Origin: an uncultured bacterium
GTDB taxonomy: Bacteria > Patescibacteriota > Minisyncoccia > Phycocordibacterales > DATDWN01
NCBI GenBank assembly: GCA_903861205.1
Contig: CAIOTC010000022.1
Span: 25-64,024 of the forward strand
Length of the DNA stretch: 64,000 bases
Direction of reading: 5' to 3'
Both the position numbers and the translations under genes were made by a program. Under the pieces are notes generated by a model. That model made no database searches. It had not been told where the DNA came from and worked only from the letters and a program-made list of their open reading frames with translations. Positions 11,351 to 61,264 of this stretch are shown in pieces. The number at the start of each line of letters is the position of its first letter. Positions within the stretch are counted from its first letter, which is position 1.

Positions 11351-11926
11351 TTATTTTTTAACGACAAACCCAATCGGATTTTTTCGTGATTCCGACGGAA
11401 TTTTTCTAATTTTATTAATTTCGTCAACCAAAAATCCTATTATCGAGGAATGTTTTTTTTGAGCATTTTCAACTCTTTCCATTCTGTTTGCTAAATCCTT
11501 ATTACCAGCAATCATCTCTCGCAATTTAACAAAAGCTCTAATTATCAAAATGTTCATTTGCACAGCCTGTTTGCTTTTTAAAACAGAAGAAAGCATGGCG
11601 ACTCCGTGTTCGGTAAAAACATATGGTAAATAACGACGACCACCATAACTTGAGGTTGCAAATTGTAACCTCAAGTTTGAGGTCATAATTTGTGACTTCC
11701 AATTTTCAGATTCTTCCTTGGTAAGTTGAAACATAAAATCTTTTGGGAAACGGTCCTTATTGCGACGTACAGCCAAATTCAAGTTTTTTGTAAGCACCTG
11801 ATACAACTCTGCCAAATCAGAGTCAAACATCACTTTTTCTCCACGAATCAAATAAATCTGACGTTCAACACGTTCAAGCGGAATTAAATTTTTACTGTCA
11901 ACTTTTTTCTTTTGAGCAAGCTTCAT
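11351..11926 (-). CDS. ORF6N/ORF6C (KilA-N-related) domain protein. Start placed at internal Met MKLAQKK.
   Basis: IRGEKVMFDSDLAELYQVLTKNLNLAVRRNKDRFPKDFMFQL (ORF6N domain) and LPYVFTEHGVAMLSSVL (ORF6C domain). It is a paralog of 33551..34108. Confidence 0.7.
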   Translation of the reverse strand: MKLAQKKKVDSKNLIPLERVERQIYLIRGEKVMFDSDLAELYQVLTKNLNLAVRRNKDRFPKDFMFQLTKEESENWKSQIMTSNLRLQFATSSYGGRRYLPYVFTEHGVAMLSSVLKSKQAVQMNILIIRAFVKLREMIAGNKDLANRMERVENAQKKHSSIIGFLVDEINKIRKIPSESRKNPIGFVVKK

Positions 11927-12125
11927 ATTCACTATAATTGTATCAAAAAATATTTTATTTTTCACAAAATATGTGCACAAGAAATTTTTTTTGAAAACAA
12001 AAAAGCCCTCCGGTGAAGGATAGGCGTGTGTACATCTGTACACTGGTTCGTGGGTCTGCCACTTGGTTACTGCTGACTGGTTAAGAAGAAGTGCTACGCA
12101 ATCGTACTACGGAAGGGTTGGCAAG

Positions 12126-12332: not shown

Positions 12333-12455
12333 ACTTTCTCCTCTTTTCAGTGAACTTTCCGGGAATCTGCCGGATCAGAATTCTGCTACTATTATACACC
12401 AAAAGATACCATCTTGTCAAGCAAAGTGGTTAAATATGGCTATAAATAAGGGTTT

Positions 12456-16228: not shown

Positions 16229-16275
16229 AGTGTTATTGAAGTTCGCCCCACGGCGGACTCATTTTTTAAGATAAA

Positions 16276-16386
16276 CATACGAATCTACGAATTATGCGAA
16301 TGATACGAATAACAACGAATATTAAAAATCAAACGCATTTAATTCGTTGCCATTCGTAGATTGGTATTTATTCGTTAATTCGTAAC
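16276..16386. promoter_or_regulatory. TACGAAT x4 followed by ATTCGTA x4 (large dyad) immediately upstream of nusA
   Basis: catacgaatctacgaattatgcgaatgatacgaataacaacgaat...ttcgttgccattcgtagattggtatttattcgttaattcgtaac. Confidence 0.45.
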
Positions 16387-18252: not shown

Positions 18253-18272
18253 CCATTAACTAACCAATTCAT

Positions 18273-18308
18273 CCTGTGATATGGGTGCCCTACGGGCAAT
18301 ATCACAAG
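18273..18308 (+). promoter_or_regulatory. Conserved hairpin family D copy 1: cctgtgatat-gggtgccctacgggca-atatcacaag, 10 nt upstream of the start codon of 18319
   Basis: 10 bp inverted arms with a conserved 16 nt loop. A second copy lies upstream of xth. Confidence 0.55.
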
Positions 18309-18318
18309 ATAAAATACC

Positions 18319-18618
18319 ATGAATGACGAAAACAAATCATCAGTCGGTTCAATAATAGGCACAATCATCATCATTGCTCTCATCGTCCTGGGCGGTTTGT
18401 ATTTCTGGGGCAAGCGCGTTGAGGAAGCGCAGAACGCCAAGAAAATGGCCAGCGAAGCGACTCTTCCAACAGTCTCGGCCGAGGATCAGGCGGCGGCCAA
18501 CGAAGCCGCGTCGATAAAAAGCACCAGTTCATTGGACGATTTGGATTCCATTGAGTCTGATTTGAATAACACAAACACCACAAACTTGAGCCCGGAGTTG
18601 GATGTGCAAGCACAGTAA
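18319..18618 (+). CDS. Small single-pass membrane protein, unknown function
   Basis: 99 aa with a TM helix SIIGTIIIIALIVLGGLYFW. It is immediately preceded by conserved hairpin element D1. Confidence 0.45.
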   Translation: MNDENKSSVGSIIGTIIIIALIVLGGLYFWGKRVEEAQNAKKMASEATLPTVSAEDQAAANEAASIKSTSSLDDLDSIESDLNNTNTTNLSPELDVQAQ

Positions 18619-18626
18619 AAGTGGAC

Positions 18627-18745
18627 AAAAATTCGCTGAATAATATTTTTTTGGAGCACGGATATTTTTCTGCTGAAAAATTCCTCAAGCCTCCGCTCGC
18701 CAGCGTCCGGAGTCTCCCAAAAAACATTATCCAGCGAATTTTTTA
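18627..18745 (+). repeat. Family C copy 2 (a 70 nt core identical to copy 3) bounded by the 17 bp IR aaaattcgctgaataat / attatccagcgaatttt
   Basis: ttggagcacggatatttttctgctgaaaaattcctcaagcctccgctcgccagcgtccggagtctcc. Confidence 0.75.
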
Positions 18746-18791
18746 GTGGTGATGTCGGGGTTTGCAAAAAGATGGCTTGTAATATAAAGTA

Positions 18792-19889
18792 ATGAATATG
18801 TCAAAAAATTACGAAAACATTGTTCTTAATTCATTGCCGGAGAGAGAAATGGAAATTGTCGGACAAATTACGGCCGAGAAAATGGCGCTCTTGCGCGAGA
18901 AAGCTTTGGCCAAGGTCAAGGAAAATTTGGAAGTGGATGGGTTCCGCAAAGGCAACGCGCCGGATTCGGTCGTCGCCCAAAAAGTTGGCGAGATGCGCCT
19001 TCTGGAGGAAGCGGCTGAAATCGCTCTAGGTGAAGAATATCCGAACATTTTGGAAGAGCACAATATCGATGCCATCGGCCGTCCGGAAATCACCATCACC
19101 AAAATCGGTGTCGGCGCACCATTGGAATTCAAAGTCAAAACCGCTCTGATGCCAGAAATTAAGCTTGGAGATTATAAAAAAATTGCTTCTTCTGTGGCGC
19201 CAGCCAATGAAAAAAATAAGGCGCCAGCTACGACAGTGCCGGAAGTTACGGACAAAGAAGTTGACGATGTTGTGTTAAATATTCGCAAAAACATGGCTCA
19301 TCAATTGGCCCATGAAAAAGCTGGGCTGGATGAGCATGATCATAATCACGGAGAAATAAAAGATGAAGACTTGCCCGCTATCGACGAAAACTTTTTGAAA
19401 TTGCTCGGTGATTTCAAAAGCGAAACAGATTTGCGAGAAAAAATAAAAGAGAATATTGGAAAAGATAAGGCGCGAGCTACGACAGACAAACGACGAACAG
19501 ATATCTTGGAAAAAATAATCGCCGAATCAAAAATAGAAATGCCAAAAATCATTGTTGAAGGCGAGCTGGAAAAAATGCTGGCCCAATTCAAAGATGACTT
19601 GGCTCGAAGCGGAGTTCCCTACGATGAATATTTGAAACATATCAAAAAATCTGAGGAAGATTTGAAAAAGGAATGGCACGACACCGCCGTCAAACGCGCC
19701 AAATCGCAGATTATTCTAAACACCATCGCCAAGGAAGAAAATATCTCGCCTGCCGAGGAAAATATTAAAAAAGAAATGGAAAACATCCTGGCCAATTTCA
19801 AAGAAGCCGATAGGTTCCGCGTCCGGATGTATGTGGAAACATTTTTGACCAATGATTTAGTCTTTAAGTTTTTAGAGGAGCAAAAATAA
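18792..19889 (+). CDS. tig: Trigger factor, short form lacking the FKBP/PPIase domain
   Basis: 365 aa. N-terminal ribosome-binding domain with GFRKGNAP, plus the C-terminal chaperone domain. No FKBP segment is present. It lies upstream of clpP, as is usual for tig. Confidence 0.8.
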   Translation: MNMSKNYENIVLNSLPEREMEIVGQITAEKMALLREKALAKVKENLEVDGFRKGNAPDSVVAQKVGEMRLLEEAAEIALGEEYPNILEEHNIDAIGRPEITITKIGVGAPLEFKVKTALMPEIKLGDYKKIASSVAPANEKNKAPATTVPEVTDKEVDDVVLNIRKNMAHQLAHEKAGLDEHDHNHGEIKDEDLPAIDENFLKLLGDFKSETDLREKIKENIGKDKARATTDKRRTDILEKIIAESKIEMPKIIVEGELEKMLAQFKDDLARSGVPYDEYLKHIKKSEEDLKKEWHDTAVKRAKSQIILNTIAKEENISPAEENIKKEMENILANFKEADRFRVRMYVETFLTNDLVFKFLEEQK

Positions 19890-23876: not shown

Positions 23877-24052
23877 TTTGGAAGGATTTTTAAAATTTCT
23901 TACGAACAGAGGCTTTTCCGTCGCCAGAATATTTTCCTGCTGGAAAATTTCTTCCTCCTCGTCTCTTCACGGACTCCGGAACGCGCCGGAAAAGCCTCTG
24001 TTCGACTAAATTTTGAAAAATCCAACTATATTTTTTGTCCACAGTCAATATG

Positions 24053-24080
24053 TTGCCTAAAAAAACCGTTGGTATATAAT
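24053..24080 (+). promoter_or_regulatory. Promoter of hup (TTGCCT-16nt-TGgTATATAAT)
   Basis: ttgcctaaaaaaaccgttggtatataat. Confidence 0.45.
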
Positions 24081-24814: not shown

Positions 24815-25069
24815 TTAAATAGAAACTGCGTGTAAACTTATATCCGAAAAAGAATAATTTTTTATAAAAGTTTTGTTTTCTTTTTCTTCCAAGCACAGAG
24901 AAATAACCTCCTTGATATTTTTCAAAGCTTCGTCGAGAGTTTTTCCAGATGTATAACAGCCATTAAAAAGCGGACATTCAACGACATAAACATTGTCCTC
25001 GTCTTTTTCCACCACAACTGGAAATGTATTTTTATTGGGTATTTTTTTCATTTTTTTCTTCTTTTTCAT
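24815..25069 (-). CDS. hicB: HicB antitoxin (UPF0150 family). Start ambiguous: Met at 25069 or 25051.
   Basis: FPVVVEKDEDNVYVVECPLFNGCYTSGKTLDEALKNIKEVISLCLEE. It is followed 3 nt later by hicA. Confidence 0.7.
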   Translation of the reverse strand: MKKKKKMKKIPNKNTFPVVVEKDEDNVYVVECPLFNGCYTSGKTLDEALKNIKEVISLCLEEKENKTFIKNYSFSDISLHAVSI

Positions 25070-25101
25070 ACTATAGCATAATAATTTGCTATAATGAAGC
25101 C

Positions 25102-26235
25102 ATGCTAAAAACAATCGGGGTAACAATTTTGCTTTTGATATCGGTTGCTTTAGGTGTAGCATCCTACGCCATTTTGTCCATGCCACTTGTTGTTTCCACG
25201 CAAAATGTGGCCGTTAATTCGACAAATACGACCGATTCGACCTATCCGTCCAATTCAACTGTTGCCACAACAACGAAACAAAAAACTCCGGAAAAATCAG
25301 TGGTAGCTAAAAAAATCGCAGCGCCCGTAAAAACCGAGCAAACACCGGCGACACAGGCAACTCCCGTCCCCGCCGTGCCGCAAATTCCGTTTGAACAGCT
25401 GAACGTCACAGCCAGAAAAGCGCTGGTCAACATTCTCTGCTCAACGCAATCCGGCGGACCGCTTTCCCCCATCTCCGGCAGCGGAGTCATCATAAGCGAC
25501 AACGGTGTCATTTTGACCAACGCCCACATCGCCCAATATTTTTTGCTCCGCGATTTTAACGGCCAAAAAGACGCGGTCGAGTGCCTCATCCGCACCGGCT
25601 CGCCCGCCTACAATACCTACAGCGCCGAACTTGTTTACATTTCGCCGACATGGATTGCCGACAACAAAACCGTTCTGACTGATCAGAATCCAAAAGGTAC
25701 CGGCGAACACGATTACGCCTTTCTGCGCATTACGGGAAAAGTTGACGGCTCGCCAGTGACAGACCGGGTTCCGTATTTACCAGTGAGTCTCTCGGAAAAT
25801 AATATCGTGGGCACTTACGAACTCCTGGCCTCATATCCGGCCGGCTTTCTCGGCGGACAATCCATTTTGCAAAATTTGTTTCAATCGAGCGCCATCACCA
25901 CCATACAAGAAGTTTACACATTTGGCTCTGACACCATCGACCTCGTTTCCGTCCCAAGTACCGTCGTCTCGCAAAAAGGCTCGTCCGGTGGCGCGGTGGT
26001 CAACGGATTTGGCACACTAACGGGCATCATTTCCACCGAAACGGAAGGCGCCACCACCGGCGACCGCGACCTGCGTGCCATCACCGCTAGTTACATAAAT
26101 CGTGATCTCAAAGCCGAATCCGGTTCGTCCATCGCCGACATCCTCGCCTTCCCCGCCCAGTACACCCAAAATTTCAACACCACCATAGCGCCGAAACTCT
26201 CCGAAATCTTAACCAACGCCATTTTGAAAAAATAA
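25102..26235 (+). CDS. Secreted/membrane-anchored trypsin-like serine protease (S1 family)
   Basis: Signal/anchor MLKTIGVTILLLISVALGVASYAIL. His motif GSGVIISDNGVILTNAHI and Ser motif QKGSSGGAVVNGFGTLTGI. tgctataat lies 8 nt before the ATG. Confidence 0.75.
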   Translation: MLKTIGVTILLLISVALGVASYAILSMPLVVSTQNVAVNSTNTTDSTYPSNSTVATTTKQKTPEKSVVAKKIAAPVKTEQTPATQATPVPAVPQIPFEQLNVTARKALVNILCSTQSGGPLSPISGSGVIISDNGVILTNAHIAQYFLLRDFNGQKDAVECLIRTGSPAYNTYSAELVYISPTWIADNKTVLTDQNPKGTGEHDYAFLRITGKVDGSPVTDRVPYLPVSLSENNIVGTYELLASYPAGFLGGQSILQNLFQSSAITTIQEVYTFGSDTIDLVSVPSTVVSQKGSSGGAVVNGFGTLTGIISTETEGATTGDRDLRAITASYINRDLKAESGSSIADILAFPAQYTQNFNTTIAPKLSEILTNAILKK

Positions 26236-26260
26236 AAATAAATTACTAAACCCTGTATTT

Positions 26261-26330
26261 GTCATTCCCGCGCAGGCGGGAATCCAGAAATATGTATGGA
26301 AATATGGATTCCCGCCTGCGCGGGAATGAC
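26261..26330. repeat. 70 nt near-perfect palindrome (24 bp arms) between convergent genes; likely a bidirectional terminator
   Basis: gtcattcccgcgcaggcgggaatcc-N20-ggattcccgcctgcgcgggaatgac. Confidence 0.7.
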
Positions 26331-26366
26331 ACGGTGGTGAGTTTTGTTAATTTAAGAAGTTTGAAA

Positions 26367-33243: not shown

Positions 33244-33283
33244 CCCTCCATTTTAGCAAATTACAAACAAATCTGCATTTTGA

Positions 33284-33322
33284 CCCTGTGATATTGCCCA
33301 GAGGGCACCTATATCACAGGGT
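33284..33322 (-). promoter_or_regulatory. Family D copy 2, in the 5' region of xth (same orientation relative to its downstream gene)
   Basis: The reverse complement reads ccctgtgatataggtgccctctgggcaatatcacaggg. Confidence 0.55.
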
Positions 33323-33550
33323 GGACTTTTAACATAATTCAGCGTAGTGTAATTATCGGAGGCGACACAATGGTACCAACACTCAATCTTCTGCATGCAA
33401 ATAACGTGAAATTTATTGGAGAAATTCACTTGGAAATTGACAGATTTCTCAAAAAATTAGTCGTTTTATGCTTCGTTGTGGCAGTTCTTTGTTTTTCCAT
33501 GACAACATACATATTCTTGAAGTAGGGAACCGTCCGTCGGTTCTCTTTTT

Positions 33551-34108
33551 TTATTTCGTATTAAAACCAATTTTTGATTTTGGTTTTACTTTTTCAACAA
33601 TTAGTTGGCGAATTGCATCAAAAATAGAAGCAAACTGACCATCATATTTTTGCTCCAAATCATCAAGTCTTTTAGCAATATCTTTATGCGATAACATCAA
33701 TTCGCGAATTCGCACAAATACTCTCATAATTGCAATGTTCATTTCAATAGCTCTGTTACTATTTAAAACACTGGATAACATAGCAACACCTTGTTCAGTG
33801 AATACATAAGGTAAATTACCAATGTTGCGTTTTGATGCGGTCACACTTTGTGACCGCATATTGACATTTGGTATCACAAATTGTGATACCAAATGAAGCG
33901 AATTTGTCTCTTTGATATTAAGTTGAAACATAAAATCTTTCGGAAACCTTTTTATGTTCCTTTTTACCGCTTGATTGAGAACTTTTGTCGGCACACCATA
34001 CAATTCTGCTAAATCACTATCCATCATCACTTTTTGACCACGAATAAAATATATTTTTCTCTCTATAAACTCTGCCGGAACCAAAACTTTTAAACTTATT
34101 TTACTCAT
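33551..34108 (-). CDS. ORF6N/ORF6C domain protein (second paralog)
   Basis: IRGQKVMMDSDLAELYGVPTKVLNQAVKRNIKRFPKDFMFQL and LPYVFTEQGVAMLSSVL. Confidence 0.7.
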   Translation of the reverse strand: MSKISLKVLVPAEFIERKIYFIRGQKVMMDSDLAELYGVPTKVLNQAVKRNIKRFPKDFMFQLNIKETNSLHLVSQFVIPNVNMRSQSVTASKRNIGNLPYVFTEQGVAMLSSVLNSNRAIEMNIAIMRVFVRIRELMLSHKDIAKRLDDLEQKYDGQFASIFDAIRQLIVEKVKPKSKIGFNTK

Positions 34109-37880: not shown

Positions 37881-38149
37881 CATATTTTTTGTCAAGAACT
37901 TTTGACACTTTATACAAAATACTTTTTCTGACACAAAAAATATGGCCTAATATATGGCCATTTTTGAACGCAAAACAAAATGAGATTAATTTTGATCACT
38001 GACAGAACATGTTTTTCAAGAAAAGTTTTTGTGAAAAATTTTCTAAATTTTATCAAAAAATAGTGTTTTTGCGAAAAAACACTATTTTTTACTACAATAT
38101 GGCTAGAAATATGATTTTATTGTAAATTTGATACGAAAATGACAAAAAC

Positions 38150-47486: not shown

Positions 47487-47514
47487 TATAAAATTTTTTC
47501 AATGTTCGTCCGTG

Positions 47515-47646
47515 CAGTATTTTTCCTCGACCGCCAGTCGTCTCCTGCGGACGACCGGCTCTGATCCTCGGCCGTGACTTGTCAAGATGGAATGCCTTGA
47601 CAAGTCCAAGCTCACGGCCTGCGGAGCCGAGGAAAAACACTGCACT
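47515..47646. repeat. Family B copy 2
   Basis: Same core ctgatcctcggcc..gacttgtcaagatggaatgccttgacaag..cca.gct.ca.ggcctgcggagcc. The outer stem has a different sequence but is still complementary. Confidence 0.7.
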
Positions 47647-47726
47647 ACCGAACCTTTCAAAATTTTATATTAAATTCTTGACTTTTTGCTTGAAAAGTAT
47701 AGTTTGATACATGGAGGAGACATCTT

Positions 47727-49248: not shown

Positions 49249-49460
49249 CCTGCCTTGTGGGGTGATTTTAAGACCATTGCTAGATCGAGGATCCTGATTT
49301 TTGCTTATAATAAGCCAAAATTTAACGAAAAATTCTGGATTTCCTGAAAAAATGGCTCTGTTGAGCCAAATGACAATTCTGAAGCTTACATGAATATTAT
49401 ATAGTTTTCTCTGCCAGGGTCAACACAGTTTTGCACTTTCGTGTGTTATATTTTGGAGCA

Positions 49461-49580
49461 CAAATTTCTTACGAGCCAAAGCAATTTTGGAGCACGGATA
49501 TTTTTCTGCTGAAAAATTCCTCAAGCCTCCGCTCGCCAGCGTCCGGAGTCTCCAAAATTGCTTCGTCTCGACGAAATTTG
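49461..49580 (+). repeat. Family C copy 3, with the 32 bp imperfect IR caaatttcttacgagccaaagcaattttggag / ctccaaaattgcttcgtctcgacgaaatttg
   Basis: Identical 70 nt core to copy 2. Confidence 0.75.
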
Positions 49581-49634
49581 TTTAGTGGTTGAGTTGGTTT
49601 AGGAATGGTAAATATTTTATGATAAACTTTCGGG

Positions 49635-51662
49635 ATGGATTATTTGGAAACATTGAATGAGGAGCAGAAAAAGGCGGTTTTGGCGACGGAAGGGCCGGTG
49701 TTGATCGTGGCGGGAGCAGGAGCGGGCAAGACCAAAACCATTACACATAGGATTTTGCATTTAATACGAACAGGAGTCAGACCGGAAAACATTTTGGCCA
49801 TCACTTTCACCAACAAGGCAGCGCGGGAAATGCGCGAGAGGGTGATGCTGTTACTTGAATCCCCGAGGACTGACCTTAAAATTCAAATTTCCCAAGGTCA
49901 GACCTTCGGGATTCCGTTTGTAAGCACTTTTCATGCCCTTGGAGTCCAGATCATCAAAGAAAACGCTCCACTTTTAAAACTGCCGAGGCATTTTACCATT
50001 TTTGACAAATCCGATTCTAAGAAAGCTTTGAAGGACGCTTTTAATTACATTGGTGTCGATCCGAAAGAAGTTATCGAAAAAGTCCAAAATATTATTTCGT
50101 CCGAAAAAGGACGAGGAAACAGCCTGGCGGATTATTTGGAAAGGGGAGCTTATGACTACACATCCGAGCTGACGAAAAAAATTTGGCAGAGATATGAGGA
50201 GATTTTGTCGCGCGATAATGCGCTGGACTTTGACGATTTGCTTCTCAAAACGCTCAAACTGCTTAAAAATCCGGAAGTTTTGGAAAGATATCAAAACAGA
50301 TTTGTTTATATCCACGTGGACGAATACCAGGACACCAACCTGGTGCAGAATGAAATTGTGGCCATGCTGGCGCGGAAAAATAAAAATTTGTGTGTAGTTG
50401 GAGACACGGATCAAAATATTTATTCGTGGCGAGGGGCGGAAATAAAAAACATGTTGCATTTCGAGAGAACGTATCCGGACGTCCAAACTTTTTTCCTGGA
50501 AGAAAATTATCGCTCGACCAAAACCATTTTGGCGGCGGCTAACGATGTCATTCAGAAAAATAAATACAGAATTCCGAAAAAGCTTTTTACCAACAATGGT
50601 GATGGTGAAAAAATCGGCTTGTTTGAAGCGCGAAACGAAACGGATGAGGCGCATTTTATCGCATTGAAATGCAAAGATTTGATTGAAAGTAACGTGCCGG
50701 CCGATGAGATGGCGGTGCTTTTTCGGGCCAATTTCCAGTCACGCGCACTGGAAGAAGCTTTCCTGGCTTACGGTGTGCCGTATCAAATGCTCGGGACTAA
50801 ATTTTTTGAAAGAAAGGAAATCAAAGACGTCATGAGTTTTATCAAAGCTTCGCTTAGCCCGGAAAATTTGTCGGATTTTGCCCGCGTTATAAATGTGCCG
50901 GCGCGTGGCATAGGCAAAACAACGCTCCAAAAAATCGTGGCGGGGAAGGAAAATGAATTGCCGGCCGGTATGCAGTCAAAAATCCAGAATTTCCGAGAAA
51001 TGCTTGCCAGTTTCAAAATAATTTTGGAAAAAGAAAAACCTTCGGTGGCGGTCAAATATATTATCGAAAAATCTGGAATGGAAAAAATGTATTCGACCGG
51101 TCTGGAAGAGGATAGCGACCGGTTAGAAAATATTATGGAGCTCGTTTCATTAGCTACAAAGTATGACCCAGTAGTAGAAGTCGGCATTGTGCCAAAGCAC
51201 GGAGAAGAAGATGCCGACTTCACTACGGGGCAAAGTGCGGAAGAATCGAATGAATCAGCCATCGAAAAATTTCTGACTGATTGTTCACTGACATCGGATC
51301 AAGATTCACTCGACGGACAAAAAACTGGAGTGAAGCTCATGACCGTGCACAGCGCCAAAGGTTTGGAATTTGATTACGTTTTCATTTGCGGACTGGAAGC
51401 CGACCTTTTTCCGCACAAAGGGTTTGGCGAAAAGCGCAAATCCGGCGAGGAGTCGGAGGAGGAGCGCCGACTTTTTTACGTCGCTTTGACGCGAGCAAGA
51501 AAAAAACTTTTTCTGACTCACGCCGGAACACGAACCATTTTCGGTTCGCAGGAAGTGAACTCTCCGTCGGAATTTTTGGACGATGTGGCGGATAAATATG
51601 TGGAGAAAGAGTCGTATTTCGGCGTCGAAAAAAGTGAGCCGATTTTCAAAATTGAGTTTTAA
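49635..51662 (+). CDS. pcrA: ATP-dependent DNA helicase PcrA/UvrD
   Basis: AGAGAGKT Walker A, DEYQDTN, VGDTDQNIYSWRGA, and C-terminal VALTRARKKL. Confidence 0.9.
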   Translation: MDYLETLNEEQKKAVLATEGPVLIVAGAGAGKTKTITHRILHLIRTGVRPENILAITFTNKAAREMRERVMLLLESPRTDLKIQISQGQTFGIPFVSTFHALGVQIIKENAPLLKLPRHFTIFDKSDSKKALKDAFNYIGVDPKEVIEKVQNIISSEKGRGNSLADYLERGAYDYTSELTKKIWQRYEEILSRDNALDFDDLLLKTLKLLKNPEVLERYQNRFVYIHVDEYQDTNLVQNEIVAMLARKNKNLCVVGDTDQNIYSWRGAEIKNMLHFERTYPDVQTFFLEENYRSTKTILAAANDVIQKNKYRIPKKLFTNNGDGEKIGLFEARNETDEAHFIALKCKDLIESNVPADEMAVLFRANFQSRALEEAFLAYGVPYQMLGTKFFERKEIKDVMSFIKASLSPENLSDFARVINVPARGIGKTTLQKIVAGKENELPAGMQSKIQNFREMLASFKIILEKEKPSVAVKYIIEKSGMEKMYSTGLEEDSDRLENIMELVSLATKYDPVVEVGIVPKHGEEDADFTTGQSAEESNESAIEKFLTDCSLTSDQDSLDGQKTGVKLMTVHSAKGLEFDYVFICGLEADLFPHKGFGEKRKSGEESEEERRLFYVALTRARKKLFLTHAGTRTIFGSQEVNSPSEFLDDVADKYVEKESYFGVEKSEPIFKIEF

Positions 51663-52158: not shown

Positions 52159-53007
52159 ATGCAAGCAAAGAAATCACTGGGACAACATTTTTTGAAGTCA
52201 CAAAAAGCCATTGAAACGATGGTGAAAACTTCTGGCGCACAGACCGGTGATTTGGTGTTGGAAATTGGGCCGGGAATGGGGGTTTTGACGGAAGCGCTTT
52301 TGCAGGCTGGTGCAAGCGTGGTGGCAGTAGAAAAAGATGATTTGCTCATTCCTGTTTTGGAAGAGAAGTTTGAGAAAGAAATAAAATCTGGACAACTGAA
52401 ATTGATTCACGATGATATTTTAAATTTTGACGTGTCAAAGGTGCCCTTTGGCGGTTCCGAATTGCCAAGGGGCACCCTTGACACTTATAAACTTGTAGCA
52501 AATATTCCATATTACATTACCGGACAAATTATCAGAATATTTTTGGAAGCGGAAAATCAGCCGGAGTCGATGACTTTGCTCGTCCAAAAAGAAGTGGCCG
52601 AGAGAATCGTGGCTCGTGACGAAAAAGAAAGTTTGCTTTCGCTTTCGGTCAAAGCCTACGGCACGCCGAAATATGTTGAGAAAGTCCCACGCGGAGCTTT
52701 CGCTCCGGCACCGAACGTCGATTCGGCCATCATTCACATTTCAAACATTTCCAAAAATAATTTTCGCAAGAACGGTTCTTGCGAAAAATGTGAAAAAGAA
52801 TTTTTTGAGTTGATCCATGCCGGATTCGCTCACAAACGTAAAATGCTTTTGCCAAACCTCTCCTCGCTTTACGCAAAAGACGCGCTTTCGCGCGCCTTCG
52901 CAGAATGTAAACTTGATGTCAAATGCCGAGCAGAAGACGTTCCTCTCCAAAAATGGTTTGAACTTCTGCGAGAACTGTTCTCGCAAGAAGAAATTATTGA
53001 ACGGTAA
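52159..53007 (+). CDS. rsmA: 16S rRNA (adenine1518/1519-N6)-dimethyltransferase RsmA/KsgA
   Basis: LGQHFL..., VLEIGPGMGVLTEAL, NIPYYITGQI. It contains an in-frame 63 bp palindrome (52432-52494). Confidence 0.85.
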   Translation: MQAKKSLGQHFLKSQKAIETMVKTSGAQTGDLVLEIGPGMGVLTEALLQAGASVVAVEKDDLLIPVLEEKFEKEIKSGQLKLIHDDILNFDVSKVPFGGSELPRGTLDTYKLVANIPYYITGQIIRIFLEAENQPESMTLLVQKEVAERIVARDEKESLLSLSVKAYGTPKYVEKVPRGAFAPAPNVDSAIIHISNISKNNFRKNGSCEKCEKEFFELIHAGFAHKRKMLLPNLSSLYAKDALSRAFAECKLDVKCRAEDVPLQKWFELLRELFSQEEIIER

Positions 53008-54496
53008 TCGTTACTATACTGGTCATCCCGTTGTACGTCACGGCGATCGTTGCTGTGCCTTTTGAGACCGCCATAACTTGACCGCTGTGATCGGCGCTTG
53101 CGGCGTACGGATTGAATGTGACCATTTTGGCCACGGCCGGATTGCTTGAAATCCAGCTGGCTTGCGTTGTAATGGCCGACAAAGAACCTCCTGTCGTAGA
53201 ATTCTGCCAGGCTAAAAATTGGTAAGCGCTTCCGACCGACAGTGTGATGCTCGATGGCTGGACCAAAATATTTCCGTTGGTCGTCGCTCCTCCCGGCGAT
53301 GATGTATTACACGACGCTTTGCCGTTTATGAACGCTCTCGTGCTGGAACCAACATAACCCGTCCCGGCAGTCAAACCAAGTGGTGTCAAAATCTGGTCAG
53401 CATATTTTTCCTGGTAGGCAACAACAGCCTGATAAACAGCGTCATCGAATGTGCTTTGCGACTGAGGTAAAAGCCCTTCTCCGGCCAAAACGCCTGTTAA
53501 ATATGTTACGGCTGTTCCACTGTCACCTTTTTGGAGGTCGGATGTCAGAGGAATGCACGACGTTGAACCAGATGTTGAACTATTTGTAGTCGCAGGGGAT
53601 GGTGGCACATATTGGCTGAGCTGGCCCTGTAAATCGGCCAGTTGTTTTTTGTACGTGGCAATCATATTGCTCACATAATTCGTCGTGGCTTGTTGCGCAG
53701 TTGATGCGTTGGTCACGACAACAGGCGTCGTCTGGTTTCCGCCAGTCGTAATGCCCGAACCGCTTGGATTTATAGCTGCGCCGTTGGAAAAACTACCTTT
53801 GGCGCCTGTCATATCGGTCACCCAGTTGGTGTAAGCGTTTTGGGACAAATTACCTCCGTAGCCAAAATATCTGTCCAGGGCGTATCCGGCATTAACCATC
53901 TCTCCATTTGGCAATTTGATATAGGCCTGATCGGGATTATAAGTTCCGCCGAGCAAATTTTGAGGAACCATAACCACCGTACCGCCCGTACATGCTGCCA
54001 GTTTTTGCGCGGCATCAGTTGTAGCATACCAAAGAGGGTTTATCGGCACTTCAGGCTGAACTCCAGTTTGAGGATCAGGAAAACTCAAGCCTTTTACGTC
54101 ATTCTGGAGATAATTACTCGATGATCCACTGAAATTGCAGCTAACACCGTCAACCGGCGCAATAGTTATCGTGCCAGTCCCGCCATTTGAGCCGTTGTTT
54201 ACGGGCGGTAAAGTTGCGCAAGCATTGTAACAATTCGAAACGGTGTAAGCGCCCTGGCCAGTCGGATCAAGTTCGCATGAGTTGCCGGTGCATTTGTAGC
54301 GCACGGGAATCGGTGAACCGGCCACGCAGGAATTGTTGCAGGTGGCGGTGGAATACGGGCCATAGCCGGAAATAGCAGTGCATTGACCTCCAACGCAAGC
54401 ATAATCAGCATGAGTTAATGTTGGTAAAACAAATAAAAAGACTAAACTTAACGAAAATAAAATAAAATATTTTTTCATATGCACATATTGTATCAT
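52994..54496 (-). CDS. Secreted protein with a Cys-rich N-region, a peptidoglycan-binding (PG_binding_1-like) domain and a C-terminal Big_2 Ig-like domain
   Basis: Signal peptide MKKYFILFSLSLVFLFVLPTLTHA; LQKGDSGTAVTYLTGVLAGEGLL...AVYQAVVAYQEKY; the C-terminus ...AITTQASWISSNPAVAKMV...ATIAVTY.. is Big_2-like. Confidence 0.65.
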   Translation of the reverse strand: MIQYVHMKKYFILFSLSLVFLFVLPTLTHADYACVGGQCTAISGYGPYSTATCNNSCVAGSPIPVRYKCTGNSCELDPTGQGAYTVSNCYNACATLPPVNNGSNGGTGTITIAPVDGVSCNFSGSSSNYLQNDVKGLSFPDPQTGVQPEVPINPLWYATTDAAQKLAACTGGTVVMVPQNLLGGTYNPDQAYIKLPNGEMVNAGYALDRYFGYGGNLSQNAYTNWVTDMTGAKGSFSNGAAINPSGSGITTGGNQTTPVVVTNASTAQQATTNYVSNMIATYKKQLADLQGQLSQYVPPSPATTNSSTSGSTSCIPLTSDLQKGDSGTAVTYLTGVLAGEGLLPQSQSTFDDAVYQAVVAYQEKYADQILTPLGLTAGTGYVGSSTRAFINGKASCNTSSPGGATTNGNILVQPSSITLSVGSAYQFLAWQNSTTGGSLSAITTQASWISSNPAVAKMVTFNPYAASADHSGQVMAVSKGTATIAVTYNGMTSIVTITVQ

Positions 54497-54531
54497 TTTT
54501 TCTTGCTCCGCATGATATACTTATACACAAC

Positions 54532-55371
54532 ATGCCGGAAACAAACACCCGAAAAATTTTTGTTGTGCTTATCATTTGCCTGGCTATCGTGGCATCAGTG
54601 GCCATTTGGCAATGGCGAGCAAACTCGGCAACGTCGGAAACTCCAGCAAACACCGCCGACGTTGTTTCTGACAACTCAAACACAGACAACGCCAACTCCG
54701 CCGCGCAAAACTGGCAGGGAATTTTGTCGAATATAAAAAGCGACACCACGTCCGTTTTGGCGAACAATGACACGACAAATCCAACAGACGGAACATTGAC
54801 CGCCCAAATGGCCCAGGACTTTTTCTCCCAATATCTCGCTTTGAAACAAAACAACGGCACAGTCACGGCTGATGAAGCCAACCAAATCGCTCAAAGCACA
54901 CTGACTGGCGCAGCCTACACCAACGCCACCGGCGTCCAATATACGGCCAAGGATCTGCATATAAACGCGCAAACAAGCAGGGAGATCGTGCAGAAATATC
55001 ATGACGTTATAAACACAAGCCTTAAAAACAGAGCATTGAAAAATAAAGTTGACCCCCTTGCAATTCTCAACAGCGCGGTGAAAAACGGAAGCACTGCTGA
55101 CTTGGCAGAACTCAACCCTCTTATTGTAAATTTCAAAGGCGTTGTTTCAGATCTTGCCAGTATGTCAGTGCCAGCCGACGCCACCCAAGTCCATTTGGAT
55201 TTTCTAAACGCTTACAGCAATATTTTGGCCAATTTAGAATCAATGAAACTGACATTCTCCGACCCGGTTAAAAGTTTTGCCGCAGTCAGCCAATACAAAC
55301 AACACCTAGCAGATTTGCAAACTGCCGTGCAAAAAATTGACGCATATTTTTTGGCAAAATTAAAAAGTTAA
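54532..55371 (+). CDS. Membrane-anchored hypothetical protein (N-terminal TM helix, extracytoplasmic domain)
   Basis: 279 aa. N-terminus IFVVLIICLAIVASVAIW. Confidence 0.45.
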   Translation: MPETNTRKIFVVLIICLAIVASVAIWQWRANSATSETPANTADVVSDNSNTDNANSAAQNWQGILSNIKSDTTSVLANNDTTNPTDGTLTAQMAQDFFSQYLALKQNNGTVTADEANQIAQSTLTGAAYTNATGVQYTAKDLHINAQTSREIVQKYHDVINTSLKNRALKNKVDPLAILNSAVKNGSTADLAELNPLIVNFKGVVSDLASMSVPADATQVHLDFLNAYSNILANLESMKLTFSDPVKSFAAVSQYKQHLADLQTAVQKIDAYFLAKLKS

Positions 55372-55416
55372 AAAATTTTACTTTTCAACAGAGCACGCTG
55401 GGATTTTAAATGAGTA

Positions 55417-57066
55417 TTGATATATAATATAAGTGCGGTAATGTCTTTTTTAAAAATGACACACTATTTGAAATATAAAATAATTTTGGGCGCTGTTTGT
55501 TTATCTTTTTTATTTGTTTTTTTGCCTCAAAAAGCTAACGCGCAATTTGGTATACCTGTTGAAGATTACGATGTGGAAATAAACACCAGCTTCATGGCTG
55601 TTGACACATTTGATATCGCCGTTGCAACAGATATTACTGCAGGAGCTTCGGTTGATACGGCAGTAAACACGAGCGCAAACACATGGGCTAAAGAGTTTCT
55701 GGGTGACGGGGTGGCCAACTTCATTGCCAAAATGATTGTAAAACAATTAACCGCCCAAACGGTTAATTGGATCAATTCCGGTTTCAAAGGCAACCCGGCT
55801 TTCGTGACCAACCCCGAAGGCTTTTTCCTCAACGTCGGCGACCAAATGGCGGCCGATTTTCTGACCAACACTTCACTAAACGGCCTTTGCAGTCCTTTCC
55901 AAGCTAAAATCCGTTTGGCTCTGGTTAAAAATTACCTGGCCGAAACAAATAAAAATTATTCTTGTACCCTCGGCCGACTTGAACAAAATTTTGAAAACTT
56001 CGCCAACAATTTCGACCAGGGAGGCTGGGACGGCTGGTTTACCATGACTCAAACAACCCAAGGCAATCCGTATGGGGCGTATCTCGACACCAAGGATCAA
56101 CTGTCAATCAACCTTGGTAATCAGGCAATAAAATATCAAAACCAACTAAACTGGGGCAAGGGCATTTTGTCTTACGAAAAATGCAAGAAGGGGGCGACAA
56201 TAATAAATCCTGCCAGAACAGTTGACAACGCCATTGACCCGTCACAAGATCCAAATTCGCCAACAAACTTACAGAGACAAAATATTGTTAATTATCAGAA
56301 TGCCATAGATAAAGCCAAGAAAGCCTACCAGGCTCTAACATTGAAAACAACTCCAGTTGCCACTGCAGCAGAACTCAACGCGGCGCAAGCGGCTATAAAC
56401 CAAGCTCAAACAAATTTTGATAATTACAGAGCGGATCATGGAATAAGCGATGAGCAGTTAAATTCCACACTAACTAATATTGACAGTGGTTTGGGAGAAG
56501 GAGATTGTGCACCAAGCGATAAAGAAACGGTTACACCTGGAAGCGTCATCAGCAATCAGTTGGACAGCGCTCTTGGTCAAACATGGGGTGAGCTCGTTAG
56601 TGCAGACGAAATAAACGAAATCGTCAGTGCTCTCATGACCCAAATGATTAGCCATGTTGTTGGCGGAATAGGAGATGGTTTGAGAAGTTTAAGCCAAAGC
56701 GATTCGTCATCGAATTCAAATACGGGACGAACCCTAATGCAACAACTTGTTGATAGCACGGCTTCAACGTCACCGGAAACAACCAGCTTTAACAAAGGCG
56801 CAAACAGCTTAATACCGTCAAATTTGGGTGGAAGCGCAAATCCTACTCCGACAGCAGACACCCCTTCCAGGACAGATACCCAAAATAAATTACATTGCGA
56901 TTCATTATCAGATCCATCTTGTAATCAAAACAGTTCAGGAAGTGGTAGTGGTGCACCTTCAACTTACTGCCTCAATAATACCGGTGATTACTATTGCTCA
57001 ACATACAACGGTCATGCTAGTTGCAACGTAACACCACCAGGCATTGATCCAAATTGCATACCATAG
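55417..57066 (+). CDS. Exported hypothetical protein (549 aa) with signal peptide ...LSFLFVFLPQKANAQ
   Basis: Signal peptide plus an S/T/N/Q-rich surface-type protein ending with a Cys-rich tail. Confidence 0.45.
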   Translation: MIYNISAVMSFLKMTHYLKYKIILGAVCLSFLFVFLPQKANAQFGIPVEDYDVEINTSFMAVDTFDIAVATDITAGASVDTAVNTSANTWAKEFLGDGVANFIAKMIVKQLTAQTVNWINSGFKGNPAFVTNPEGFFLNVGDQMAADFLTNTSLNGLCSPFQAKIRLALVKNYLAETNKNYSCTLGRLEQNFENFANNFDQGGWDGWFTMTQTTQGNPYGAYLDTKDQLSINLGNQAIKYQNQLNWGKGILSYEKCKKGATIINPARTVDNAIDPSQDPNSPTNLQRQNIVNYQNAIDKAKKAYQALTLKTTPVATAAELNAAQAAINQAQTNFDNYRADHGISDEQLNSTLTNIDSGLGEGDCAPSDKETVTPGSVISNQLDSALGQTWGELVSADEINEIVSALMTQMISHVVGGIGDGLRSLSQSDSSSNSNTGRTLMQQLVDSTASTSPETTSFNKGANSLIPSNLGGSANPTPTADTPSRTDTQNKLHCDSLSDPSCNQNSSGSGSGAPSTYCLNNTGDYYCSTYNGHASCNVTPPGIDPNCIP

Positions 57067-57072
57067 AAATAA

Positions 57073-59430
57073 ATGAAAAAGTTTTTAATTTTCAGTTTAA
57101 TATTGATTCTCCTTGTCGGTGTTTTTGCACCGAGTGGGGTTGCATTTAGCGCGCCAGTTCCAGGCGGGGGCTCAGGCGGATACACCACAAACACGAATGG
57201 AACTGTTAATCAAAATGCCCAAAGCAATACCACTTCAAATCTATCCGCGATAATTATGGGTGCCCTCAGCGGTATATCTTATTTTATTCTTACCGCTATG
57301 GGCTGGCTTCTTTGGCTTTCAGGTATGCTTCTCAACCTAGTCCTTGACCAAACCATAATAAAATTCACAGCAAATATCGGAACCATGACGGGTATAAATA
57401 CTGCATGGAAAGTTATCCGCGATGTCATGAACATGTTCTTTATTTTTATACTCCTCTACAACGCCATCATGATTATTATCAGCCAGAAAAACAGAGGCGA
57501 CATCCAAAAAATTGTCGGTGGTATTGTCATCACGGCGCTTCTCATAAATTTCAGTATGTTCTTCACCAAAGTAATTATCGATGCTTCAAACATTGCCACA
57601 ATCGGATTTTATAATTCAATAATTAATGCCGGACAATCAACAGTCATAACTACTGGTACTGATTCTTCAGGGAATCCATTAACATCAAATTTGAGAATGG
57701 GGATTTCCGGCGCTTTCGCAAATGCTCTGCATATAACCAGTTTTTATTCTTCAAACGGCATAGCGAATCAACCCGCGCCGTCTTCAATGGTTATAATTTA
57801 TCTTGGAGGTGCTATTCTTTTTCTCATTGTGGCATTTGTTCTATTCGCAATAGCAGCAATGTTTGTTATTAGGTATGTCGCATTCATACTTCTACTAATG
57901 TTTTCACCTCTCGGTTTTATTGGATTTGGTTTGCCACAATTAAAAGGAGCTCAAGACGATTGGTGGAAAATACTTAAAGGTCAAGCGATTTTTGCGCCAC
58001 TATATATGTTTCTGACATGGGTAATTCTGACGCTCATGGGCAGTGATGGATTTATTCCAAAATCTGGCGCACTGGCAGACATTAATAATGCCGCTGATCC
58101 GACTGCGCAAATGGGAGCCATTGCACTCATAATAAACTTCGCGGTTATTATCATATTGATTATTTTCTCACTGACAAAATCGAAGGAGTACGCCGAGCAG
58201 GGTTCAAAATATCTCAGCCAAGCCACTGGCAAACTGACCGCCTTCGCTGGCGGGGTAGCAATGGGGGGCAGCGCGGCAATTATGAGAAATACAGCCGGGA
58301 GATATGCGAACAACAAAGCCAACGACCAGGATTTGAAAGATCGTGCTGCTAAGGGTGACAAACTTGCTCAGTTGCAGTTGAAAACTTACAGGGCGGCTGC
58401 AGCAGGAAGTTTTGACTTGAGAAGAAGCTCTGCAGGTGAACAAATAGCGAAAAGTACTGGCGTAAACTTCGGAAAAGGAATTCCATTTAATGAAAAATCT
58501 GGACAAGGTGGATTCAAGAAAGCAAAAGAAGAAAAAGCAAAGAAAGAACAAGAATATGCAAAATCCCTAAAACCTTCTGACGAAGAATACGAAATCGCAA
58601 AAGAAAAAGATGCTGAAATAAAAGCCGCACAGGCAAAACTAAAAGACGCAGGATTTATTGCTGAAGAAAAAAGAAGAAAAGATGGTGAGTTAAATTCTGA
58701 AAAATACAAAAATTCAGAAATGTATTTGAATGCAGAAAAAGAAAAAACAGAAAACGAAGCAAATGAAGCTAAGGTGATTACGGAAAAAGAAAAACAAGCA
58801 AAACTTGACGCAGAATTGAAAGAGATTGAGAAGTTAAAACAAAGTGCATCATATCTTCTCGACCAACAGAAACGAAAAGAAATTGATGATAATATTTCAG
58901 CAAAAAAACGAGAGATTGAGGACCAAAATGAAATAATATCAAAATTAAAAGAGAGTATAGAAAAAAATAGTGTAGCGACCAAAGAGCGTCAAAAATATGA
59001 GAATGAATGGAAGAGCAAGGATAAAAGTGATTTGGAAGAATTGGCAAAACAAGAAGCTAATAATGAAAAAGAGTTAGAAAATATTTGGAAAGAACGCAAG
59101 AATAATTATGCCGACAGCGTTGAAAATGCGTGGATGAAACGATATTCTATGACTATTCTTGGTGGTTTGGCGGGTGCCGCGTTGGGGGGGCCTATCGGTG
59201 CTGGGGTTGGCGCCGCAGTAGGCAAATCATTCGGTGGAACAAAAGCTGAGCAGGAACATATAGCCAGAAAAATAAGGAATGAAACGGGAAAGAAAAAAGA
59301 AATGACAAAAAAGGAAAAGGCTGAATTAAGAAAAAAATTGGATAAACTTGAAGACAAAGACAGTGATGAGGCGAAAGAGATAAAGAAAAAACTTGGTTGG
59401 GATGAAGAAGATAAAGAACTAGAAGAATAA
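57073..59430 (+). CDS. Polytopic membrane protein, VirB6/TrbL-like by topology, with a roughly 330 aa K/E-rich coiled-coil C-terminal tail
   Basis: Signal peptide, then at least 6 TM helices over about 400 aa, then a charged helical tail (KAKEEKAKKEQEYAKS...). Placement is within the T4SS-like gene neighbourhood. Confidence 0.45.
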   Translation: MKKFLIFSLILILLVGVFAPSGVAFSAPVPGGGSGGYTTNTNGTVNQNAQSNTTSNLSAIIMGALSGISYFILTAMGWLLWLSGMLLNLVLDQTIIKFTANIGTMTGINTAWKVIRDVMNMFFIFILLYNAIMIIISQKNRGDIQKIVGGIVITALLINFSMFFTKVIIDASNIATIGFYNSIINAGQSTVITTGTDSSGNPLTSNLRMGISGAFANALHITSFYSSNGIANQPAPSSMVIIYLGGAILFLIVAFVLFAIAAMFVIRYVAFILLLMFSPLGFIGFGLPQLKGAQDDWWKILKGQAIFAPLYMFLTWVILTLMGSDGFIPKSGALADINNAADPTAQMGAIALIINFAVIIILIIFSLTKSKEYAEQGSKYLSQATGKLTAFAGGVAMGGSAAIMRNTAGRYANNKANDQDLKDRAAKGDKLAQLQLKTYRAAAAGSFDLRRSSAGEQIAKSTGVNFGKGIPFNEKSGQGGFKKAKEEKAKKEQEYAKSLKPSDEEYEIAKEKDAEIKAAQAKLKDAGFIAEEKRRKDGELNSEKYKNSEMYLNAEKEKTENEANEAKVITEKEKQAKLDAELKEIEKLKQSASYLLDQQKRKEIDDNISAKKREIEDQNEIISKLKESIEKNSVATKERQKYENEWKSKDKSDLEELAKQEANNEKELENIWKERKNNYADSVENAWMKRYSMTILGGLAGAALGGPIGAGVGAAVGKSFGGTKAEQEHIARKIRNETGKKKEMTKKEKAELRKKLDKLEDKDSDEAKEIKKKLGWDEEDKELEE

Positions 59431-60793: not shown

Positions 60794-61264
60794 GTGGATA
60801 AGAAAAATGAGCTAAAATACAACTATATGAAATATCAAGTTCCACAATTCATCGAAATAGAAGACAAAATTATCGGGCCTTTGACGATCAAGCAGTTCGT
60901 TTACCTGGCCGGGGGAGCGGGAATGTGCTTTATCGCTTACCGATTTTTACCATTCCTCATTGCTATCGTTCTGATGGCAGTTATTATCGCTTTGTCACTG
61001 GCGCTGGCTTTTTACAAAGTCAACAATCGAAATTTCATCGAACTTTTGGAATCAATGTTTAATTTTTACACCAAAAGCCGGCTGTATATTTGGAAAAAGG
61101 AAGTTAAACAAATATCAAGAAATAAGGCGCCAGCTACGACAGCACTGGAACAAATATTCGTTCCAAAACTTTCCGAAAGCAAATTGAAAGAATTGTCGTG
61201 GAGTTTGGACATTAATGAGAACCTGAATCCATTAACGGGAGAGGAGGGAAAGAATACCAAATAA
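60794..61264 (+). CDS. Small two-TM membrane protein, a possible VirB3/PrgI-like T4SS component. It contains the 22 nt coding repeat.
   Basis: LTIKQFVYLAGGAGMCFIAYRFLPFLIAIVLMAVIIALSLALAF. It is positioned upstream of the VirB4-like gene. Confidence 0.4.
   Translation: MDKKNELKYNYMKYQVPQFIEIEDKIIGPLTIKQFVYLAGGAGMCFIAYRFLPFLIAIVLMAVIIALSLALAFYKVNNRNFIELLESMFNFYTKSRLYIWKKEVKQISRNKAPATTALEQIFVPKLSESKLKELSWSLDINENLNPLTGEEGKNTK

Follow-up and report, generated by a model that had tools for sequence, protein, structure and literature searches.

What is the structured repeat of about 120 nt that lies just upstream of pcrA at positions 49,461 to 49,580 of this 64,000-nt stretch of DNA (hereafter, the window), and why does it recur next to tig and tpiA, two genes functionally unrelated to pcrA and to each other? 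A sequence-only reading had recognized three copies and proposed either that the repeat is a mobile element carrying a promoter or that it forms a 5' regulatory RNA common to the three genes. We found that the repeat belongs to a real and previously undescribed family; a literature search returned no description of such repeats in CPR bacteria. The feature that its copies have in common is the end of the preceding gene and not the start of the next.

The three copies were located where the sequence-only reading had placed them, with A and B on the plus strand and a diverged copy, C, in inverted orientation. Their bounds were roughly right, but each unit is slightly larger than first stated because a conserved 3' tail, TTAGTGGTGA, follows the hairpin. 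Copy A (18625-18752, plus strand) comprises an outer stem, P1 (18627-18656 paired with 18714-18743), and a core formed by two further hairpins, P2 and P3 (18657-18714), and closes with the tail AGTGGTGA (18745-18752). Its start is separated by 7 nt from the stop codon of an ORF at 18319-18618, and the tig ATG (18792) follows 40 nt after its end. Copy B (49460-49592, plus strand) has its P1 at 49460-49492 and 49550-49581, a core of the same sequence as that of A at 49493-49550 and a variant tail, TTAGTGGTTGA, at 49582-49592. It is flanked by a divergent M23-peptidase gene on one side and by pcrA (ATG at 49635) on the other, and it lies between pcrA and the strong minus-strand promoter of the peptidase gene (49423-49396). 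Copy C (5777-5910, minus strand; P1, 5787-5818 and 5877-5910; core, 5819-5876; tail, 5777-5786) starts 4 nt past the stop codon (5915-5917) of a minus-strand ORF at 5915-7369. A fourth, diverged copy, here called W4, had been overlooked; it occupies 23884-24023 on the plus strand (core, 23924-23981) and starts 8 nt past the RNase Y stop codon (23876). The window therefore holds four copies in 64 kb, all of them non-coding units of 120-140 nt.

Similarity among these copies is a mosaic. A and B have a common core and different outer stems; the 70-nt identical core first attributed to them is shared as claimed, but the maximal exact match measures 69 nt (18649-18717 and 49485-49553), with 72 of 73 nt the same over 18649-18721. 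The 67-nt string quoted in the sequence-only reading occurs exactly twice in the window. Copies B and C, by comparison, share their outer stem (30 nt at 97% and 44 nt at 89% identity), and the diverged core of C is 54% identical to that of A and B. The inverted repeat that bounds each copy is indeed an individual one, but the stems are not all unrelated, as the case of B and C illustrates; the arms measure 30 nt in A (90% complementarity), 30 nt in C (80%) and ~32-33 nt in B, where one bulge interrupts the pairing. A 19-mer, CTCCGCTCGCCAGCGTCCG, is present in A, B and, on the minus strand, C, compared with zero occurrences expected from shuffles. An AGTGG repeat flanking both sides was seen at copy A alone.

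We searched for relatives using the exact 19-mer, with which 3 of 22 loci found among 185,579 GTDB species genomes and 1 of 26 found in JGI metagenomes were real, the rest being chance matches in G+C-rich genomes. The true relatives are two copies in one Nomurabacteria MAG (L006 and L008), one in another CPR MAG (L002) and one on a 1-kb metagenome contig (L038). The trigger factor encoded in the window has its homologs in Paceibacteria (Parcubacteria) near Zambryskibacteria (best non-self match, 80% identical), and we fetched related contigs through homologs of Tig and KsgA and searched them with an nhmmer profile and then with a covariance model. Fourteen copies in the window and seven related contigs matched the covariance model at E <= 1e-8, and eleven further copies were counted in related Paceibacteria contigs beyond the four of the window. 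Copies are dense in some of this DNA (L052, two in 15 kb; L057, two or perhaps three in 21 kb; L055, one in 21 kb), and neither the profile nor the covariance model found any on contigs L049 and L059. A search of viral contigs, plasmids and phages revealed no relative of the repeat and no autonomous parent element. We rejected an artefact of assembly or MDA because identical elements occur in independent assemblies (L052/L053 and L057/L058) and reading frames are preserved.

Every copy folds into a three-way junction in which the long outer stem carries the two core hairpins at its tip. The conserved core spans ~58 nt (up to 73 nt), and the outer stem is largely specific to each copy: P1 has 17-37 bp of a sequence that varies by locus, with a purine-rich inner end on its 5' side preceded by a T-run. 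P2 consists of a lower stem of 3-4 bp, a bulged T, an A/T upper stem of 7-8 bp and a TGCT loop, and P3 of a short closing stem, a TC/TC(C) internal loop, a G/C stem of 3-4 bp and a CGYC-type loop; the helices are joined by (C)AC, TCG/TCA and AGY/ATG. Terminal ends of the form ACAAAT(T/C)TC...GA(A/G)ATTTGT are common to B, C, L038 and an unrelated element at 5477-5633, and the ends of A are a variant of this type; the stems of L006, L008, L052b, L057a and W4 are unrelated. The same fold accounts for the reading frames that cross the element, which are by-products of its hairpins. Coding for a small protein was accordingly rejected, since peptide similarity tracks the hairpin loops and compensatory changes in the stems rewrite the residues.

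Covariation in this structure is strong. In a hand-curated alignment of 11 distinct copies, with 6-8 sequence variants per helix, own-arm pairs were standard in 183 of 183 cases (three of them G-T), compared with 56-71% when arms were swapped between variants. The unpaired nucleotides hardly vary, with the bulged T and the TC/TC(C) loop present in 11 of 11 copies and the TGCT loop in 10 of 11. In the model-derived alignment of 14 copies, which is fitted to the covariance model and so biased towards structure, 88% of cells were paired, compared with 63% in shuffles (0 of 500 reached the observed value) and no more than 54% in a slid-partner control, and 16 of 18 pairs had changes on both sides; the hand alignment and the slide control agree. 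Among 230 cells there was a single one-sided change of the G-U type compared with 53 double changes. Wobble intermediates are usually common in an RNA that evolves by point mutation, and their near-absence here fits complementarity that is made or kept at the DNA level. Template switching at quasi-palindromes, in which one arm is copied from the other, would have this effect.

No known RNA family matched. Rfam 15, which the sequence-only reading had proposed as a check, returned only tRNAs at the gathering score for the whole window and four loci, and its best matches to the elements in E-value mode were chance-level miRNA models. Hammerhead (CUGAUGA/GAAA core), K-turn, 5S, SRP, tRNA-like and retron structures were also considered and discarded, as the conserved nucleotides of the repeat do not fit them by eye and Rfam gave no support.

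Comparison of orthologous sites revealed polymorphism between relatives. Upstream of tig, an element is present in the window and in L052/L053, with outer stems that have diverged by matched changes in both arms; the same site holds a plain A-tract/hairpin/T-tract terminator in L055, L057 and L059 and a 38-nt spacer in L049. Between rny and hup, the window and L052 each carry a copy (unrelated outer stems, 36% core identity), and L055 and L059 are empty. The outermost 9 stem pairs of W4 use GAAAAATCC, a native flank that is also found in the empty L055 site, together with a partner arm, GGATTTTT, found in the filled site only. Target-site duplications, which the sequence-only reading had suggested looking for, were not visible at either of the two sites with empty comparators, namely rny-HU (window versus L055) and ksgA (L055 versus L061). 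Because the nearest relatives are only ~75-80% identical in protein sequence, these 'empty' sites could be losses and not ancestral states.

Whole units, comprising stem and tail, recur at unrelated loci. The clearest case is L038:670-791, which is 87% identical to copy A over 123 nt, including the outer stem and a TTAGT(T)GG tail, on a contig with no flank homology or other similarity to the window. Paralogs in the same genome differ little or not at all (core identity, 1.00 for A/B and 0.93 for L006/L008), whereas copies at orthologous sites diverge (0.67 for A/L052a and 0.36 for W4/L052b). The dispersal, these core identities and the mosaicism of stem and core together indicate that copies have been duplicated, replaced or homogenized within genomes.

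One copy lies inside a gene. In L055, an element at positions 3879-3971 of the contig lies within ksgA, on the strand opposite to the gene, and leaves an uninterrupted ORF of 306 aa; KsgA homologs of the clade mostly have 259-265 aa, and the closest (77% identical, 265 aa) is without the segment. A DNA alignment of L055 with L061 delimits a 93-nt insert preceded by ...AAAATTTTG (also given as AAAAATTTTG) and followed by AAATTTTC..., and the empty site, GGAAATTTT|AAATTTAAAATT, forms a quasi-palindrome rich in A and T. The 23 nt on the 3' side of the insert are, in the filled gene, a near-perfect inverted copy of the 23 nt on its 5' side, but the two flanks match at only ~14 of 22 positions in the empty gene. 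Since the upstream 23 nt encode the conserved GDILDF motif they must be native, and the inverted repeat of this copy was therefore made from local sequence, with one flank turned into the inverted copy of the other. An insert of 93 nt, a multiple of three, in an open frame fits read-through translation, and the data are also compatible with removal at the RNA level. No further coding insertions emerged when the open reverse frame was used as a peptide query against 1.8 billion protein representatives; the sole matches were two unrelated repeat proteins and a 46-aa ORF, itself spurious, on an element of the L038 type.

Palindromes of other kinds are also present in these genes and in the rest of the window. 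The ksgA gene of the window has a different palindrome (52422-52494) at the spot of the L055 insert, and KsgA homologs carry many different inserts at a few fixed positions. A family of small hairpins has one intergenic member (5703-5750), one in frame in pcrA (49857-49914) and one in the ksgA gene of L068, and the pcrA gene of L055 holds a 28-bp palindrome at the same loop as the pcrA palindrome in the window. We also observed a second family of three-way junctions (5477-5643 and 47491-47666), a 27-bp perfect hairpin (26260-26331) and several A/T-rich palindromes.

We favor reading the family as a selfish, duplicative, non-coding palindromic DNA element of Paceibacteria, similar to RPE, ERIC, Correia and SPRITE repeats but with an inverted layout in which the tip is conserved and the stem varies, and we give this reading a probability of roughly 0.6. 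The mobile-element half of the original proposal is supported by copies at non-orthologous loci, empty orthologous sites, identical paralogs and one copy within a gene. Insertion or exchange places the core at the tips of hairpins rich in A/T, mainly in terminators that follow a stop codon and once in the ksgA quasi-palindrome. Spread and homogenization probably proceed by copying at the DNA level, whether through template switching, gene conversion between hairpins or a hairpin-specific enzyme, and classical cut-and-paste transposition is probably not involved. For the host, the likely effect would be that of an oversized and probably bidirectional terminator or insulator hairpin at the 3' end of the upstream transcript, with the element supplying no downstream promoter and forming no leader. 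The bulged T, the TGCT loop, the TC/TC loop and the RGTGGTRA tail may be recognition features for a factor that propagates or binds the element. Several points count against the selfish reading. No transposase, reverse transcriptase or Y1/HUH gene was found among the ~40 window ORFs scanned with Pfam, neither site with an empty comparator has a visible target duplication, and no autonomous parent element came to light. The unpaired asymmetric nucleotides, the 19-mer shared across genera and the uniform orientation described below would fit a host-selected RNA equally well, and a coding insertion of this family was found only once.

A host-selected RNA is in fact the strongest competitor, although we consider it unlikely. 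Here the element would be a cis-acting 3' UTR module, such as a protein-dependent terminator, a stabilizing or processing signal or an insulator between closely packed genes, whose spread is secondary; it might, for example, combine a long double-stranded stem for RNase III with a protein-binding three-way junction. Strong covariation of the three helices around invariant unpaired nucleotides would be expected of such a module, and the core motif is conserved in Zambryskibacteria-like bacteria, Nomurabacteria and another CPR MAG. Position relative to genes speaks for it and for the selfish reading alike: A, C, W4, L006, L008 and L057:3078 start 4-14 nt past the upstream stop codon, behind genes that include serS (L006), a response-regulator gene (L008), pilC (L057:3078) and rny (W4), with cca preceding another copy. 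All nine copies (seven loci) that have a co-linear upstream gene share its direction, an orientation bias which over seven independent loci corresponds to a two-sided binomial p of ~0.016 by our own calculation. Yet copy B sits between divergent genes with no upstream gene to terminate, the ksgA copy is antisense within coding sequence and close relatives use plain terminators at the orthologous sites. The scarcity of G-U intermediates (1 in 230 cells), paralogs that are identical where orthologs have diverged, and the lack of an Rfam match also argue against a host-selected module.

Terminator activity is suggested by position only, as a clear T-run is present at no more than about half the copies. 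T-runs follow A, L052a, L052b and L008 and are missing after L006, L002 and L055a. A simple scan for intrinsic terminators did not call the elements, which it missed because their stems are too long and branched.

It is more doubtful that the elements are single-stranded DNA substrates of a hairpin-specific enzyme, comparable to REP/BIME sequences with RAYT or to IS200/IS605-derived PATEs, which would mobilize them in a strand-specific manner without duplicating the target. Such a system would be one particular form of the mobility mechanism, with recognition and cleavage signals provided by the bulged-T hairpin and by the RGTGGTRA tail beside the stem. Consistent with this proposal, no target-site duplication was detected, the bulged T of P2 is conserved and RGTGGTRA is a conserved short motif with constant spacing, placed 1-2 nt beyond the 3' side of the hairpin stem. 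It occurs at 10 sites in the window compared with 3.75 expected, and four of these are 1-2 nt past long hairpins that belong to three unrelated families (A, C, 5477-5643 and 26260-26340), with B carrying a variant. Across the Paceibacteria DNA examined, 3 of 17 RGTGGTRA sites are directly preceded by a hairpin, compared with 1% of random positions. Empty sites do not contain the motif, which is therefore part of the elements, travels with them and is excluded as a target site; neither a -10 element nor a Shine-Dalgarno sequence was a tenable reading of TTAGTGGTGA, there being no start codon or -35 box at the right spacing.

Indications of strand preference are inconsistent. Folding is slightly better on the strand opposite the flanking genes for A, B and C and in 11 of 14 outer stems; there, the invariant internal loop of P3 (TC/TC) reads as tandem G.A. 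The outer-stem G.U count (28 versus 19) mildly favors the same antisense strand, an asymmetry that is weak and not significant, whereas the wobble pairs of the core helices occur on the gene-sense strand only. Strand assignment from G.U versus A.C mismatches and fold energies thus gave conflicting answers for outer stems and core helices. Other evidence also weighs against single-stranded substrates: no Y1/HUH transposase was found in the window or among Pfam hits in ~100 kb of relatives' DNA, and the element is far larger and more complex than REPs.

A related and equally tentative idea, which we regard as improbable at present, joins the RGTGGTRA-tailed hairpin families as substrates of an undescribed DNA mobility system of CPR bacteria that targets hairpin tips. 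The three-way-junction core would be copied as single-stranded DNA into the apices of A/T-rich hairpins, either terminators or quasi-palindromes within genes, and conversion of one flank into the inverse of the other would build the inverted repeat. If true, this mode of spread would be unlike that of cut-and-paste MITEs, REP/RAYT systems or group II introns.

The original alternatives, a mobile promoter or a riboswitch-like 5' leader RNA for tig, pcrA and tpiA, are very improbable and are largely refuted for A and W4, because the tig and HU promoters lie downstream of these elements. The identities of the three genes had been called correctly, as had the orientation of A, B and C, each of which points like the next gene downstream; the start codons, first put 70-350 nt away, are at ~47 nt (tig), 54 nt (pcrA) and 300-340 nt (tpiA). 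The tig promoter block (TTGC[AC]A ... AATATA[AG]A), located between A and the start codon, aligns in six genomes and is kept in four relatives without the element, and the HU promoter (24053-24080), with 10 of 12 consensus matches, follows W4. In favor of the original alternatives, a weak promoter-like match (9 of 12) overlaps the 5' arm of A, and no consensus promoter was found between B and pcrA, so a leader position is possible for that copy. Two further hairpin elements, however, intervene between C and tpiA. Other copies downstream of serS, the response-regulator gene, pilC, cca and rny, and the absence of any matching Rfam family, likewise do not fit a leader shared by the three functionally unrelated genes.

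Among known repeats, the selfish element we propose resembles RPE, which are palindromic, non-autonomous sequences of ~100-150 bp in a reduced genome, both intergenic and translated in frame within housekeeping genes (PMC10969869). The family includes one in-frame ksgA copy, a single case of insertion with the ORF maintained (93 nt in L055), and other palindromes are in frame in pcrA and ksgA. RPE belong to another phylum, and homology across phyla is unlikely; our family is mostly intergenic at terminator positions, conserves a two-hairpin tip and not the whole palindrome, and has no conserved encoded peptide in other proteins. SPRITE, ERIC and Correia/NEMIS repeats are small structured sequences co-transcribed with flanking genes that can serve as terminators, RNase III or RNase E targets and insulators, with SPRITE being terminator-like and clusters with nested elements known (PMC10969869). 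The elements described here are similarly found at terminator positions, and copy C is clustered with other hairpin families at 5477-5916.

In classical MITEs, the terminal inverted repeats are conserved and the target site is duplicated (TA for Correia); the present elements are likewise small (<~300 bp), non-coding and multi-copy, but their outer repeats are variable and partly derived from the flanks, their interior is conserved, their 3' tail is asymmetric and no duplication was detected. Correia elements carry promoters, whereas this family does not supply that of tig or HU. REP/BIME sequences with RAYT and IS200/IS605 elements are imperfect palindromes with a short motif adjacent to the stem. 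They combine modules in mosaic fashion, evolve in concert within a genome, do not duplicate their target and use extrahelical bases for recognition. Our family shares the palindromes, the stem-side motif, the mosaics, the lack of duplication and the concerted evolution, but REPs are single hairpins of 20-40 nt and not three-way junctions of 120-140 nt, and the window ORFs scanned include no RAYT/Y1 gene. Lastly, attC sites keep their structure while the sequence of the paired arms varies, conserve extrahelical bases and are fixed in orientation to the upstream gene, comparable to the individual inverted repeats, conserved unpaired bases and fixed orientation observed here. They lack a conserved interior sequence, unlike this family, which in turn has no R''/R' core sites (RYYYAAC/GTTRRRY) or integrase and is flanked by housekeeping genes and not by cassettes.

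CPR/Patescibacteria genomes are tiny and usually thought to be poor in mobile DNA, and here 64 kb contain four copies of one family together with other hairpin families and with palindromes that are translated within the housekeeping genes pcrA and ksgA. If this is general, such elements would be a source of variation in protein length and of annotation errors in CPR MAGs, including spurious ORFs like the 46-aa example and apparent 'insertions', and they would open a way to study the insulation of transcription units where genomes are very compact. A phylum-wide census could make direct use of the present covariance model. The conserved tip and flank-derived stem, together with the ksgA case, would provide a concrete and testable example of palindrome growth by flank copying, which would be of wider interest if flank copying and the targeting of hairpin tips prove to be general in CPR genomes.

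Besides family C, a dispersed palindromic repeat of about 120-140 nt that folds as a three-way junction, we identified a second family of three-way-junction hairpins with two plus-strand copies in the window, at 5477-5643 and 47491-47666. They share 88% identity across the 68 nt of their cores (5537-5604 versus 47561-47628), and each core is enclosed by a separate outer stem, that at 5477/5604 being 30 nt long and 100% complementary. The copy at 5477-5643 has the ends ACAAAT...ATTTGT and the tail GGTGGTAA, both as in family C, but it lies antisense to its flanking genes.

A perfect 27-bp hairpin with a tail (26260-26340, plus strand) stands immediately 3' of the stop codon of an HtrA-like peptidase gene (25024-26235), and GGTGGTGA, which is the family C tail motif, begins 1 nt past it. 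On L057, a contig of a related member of the Paceibacteria, a marginal covariance-model match to family C (19055-19121, minus strand, 21 bits) contains a bulged-T hairpin resembling P2 of the family C core within a larger branched palindrome, antisense to both genes beside it; this element is either a remote family C relative or a member of a distinct family.

On the minus strand at 49423-49343, a near-consensus promoter (TTGACC-16-TATAAT) is followed after about 25 nt by a hairpin and T-run (49368-49343), located approximately 100 nt upstream of an M23/LysM peptidase gene. Together these could constitute an attenuator, a small RNA or a leader.

Several further repeats are present. Very A/T-rich palindromic repeats (AATTTTTAATTTAAAATTTTTAAT...) occupy the intergenic gaps between pgk, tpiA, pilin-like and type IV pilus genes, including three 111-nt copies (84-88% identity) at 4572-4682, 7368-7478 and 8098-8208, with further places at 1764-1815, 10005-10112 and 61256-61320/61644-61708. 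A 60-nt hairpin-containing sequence (CCTGTGATAT...ATATCACAGG) is found in opposite orientations at 18255-18314, immediately upstream of an ORF (18319-18618), and at 33279-33338, the two being 77% complementary. Palindromes built of ACGAAT-type short repeats lie between the clpX-like gene and nusA (16266-16378) and, on the related contig L068, in the intergenic regions on both sides of ksgA (1176-1268 and 2232-2321). The 24-nt intergenic motif AAA(C/T)ATG(A/G)CTA(G/T)AAATAAGGGTTT is present at 5663-5686, 12432-12455 (88% identical to the first copy) and 38095-38118 (75%). A 34-nt sequence (AAAAAATAAGGCGCCAGCTACGACAG...; 74-88% identity) occurs twice within tig (19211-19244 and 19460-19493) and once near a PrgI-like gene (61117-61150).

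The window also encodes two ORF6N-domain proteins (11351-12043 and 33551-34108) and a PrgI-family protein (60794-61264), beside several large ORFs that lack a Pfam match (52994-59430). These may mark an island, either for conjugation or type IV secretion-like, at its right end.

Other palindromes are translated. One small hairpin family (AGGTCAGACCTT...AAGGTCTGACCT) is found both between genes (5703-5750) and in frame within two housekeeping genes, pcrA (49857-49914), where it fills a variable loop of PcrA between the RERV and STFH motifs, and ksgA (L068:1960-2000). Additional palindromes lie within ksgA of the window (52422-52494; gene 52159-53007), within pcrA of the related contig L055 (7515-7590) and at L068:1558-1681. 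In both KsgA and PcrA, the palindrome translated in frame at a given loop position differs between lineages, and alignment of clade homologs of KsgA (240-344 aa) attributes the length variation to inserts at a few fixed spots. This pattern suggests that palindromes form or insert recurrently at A/T-rich quasi-palindromic codons.
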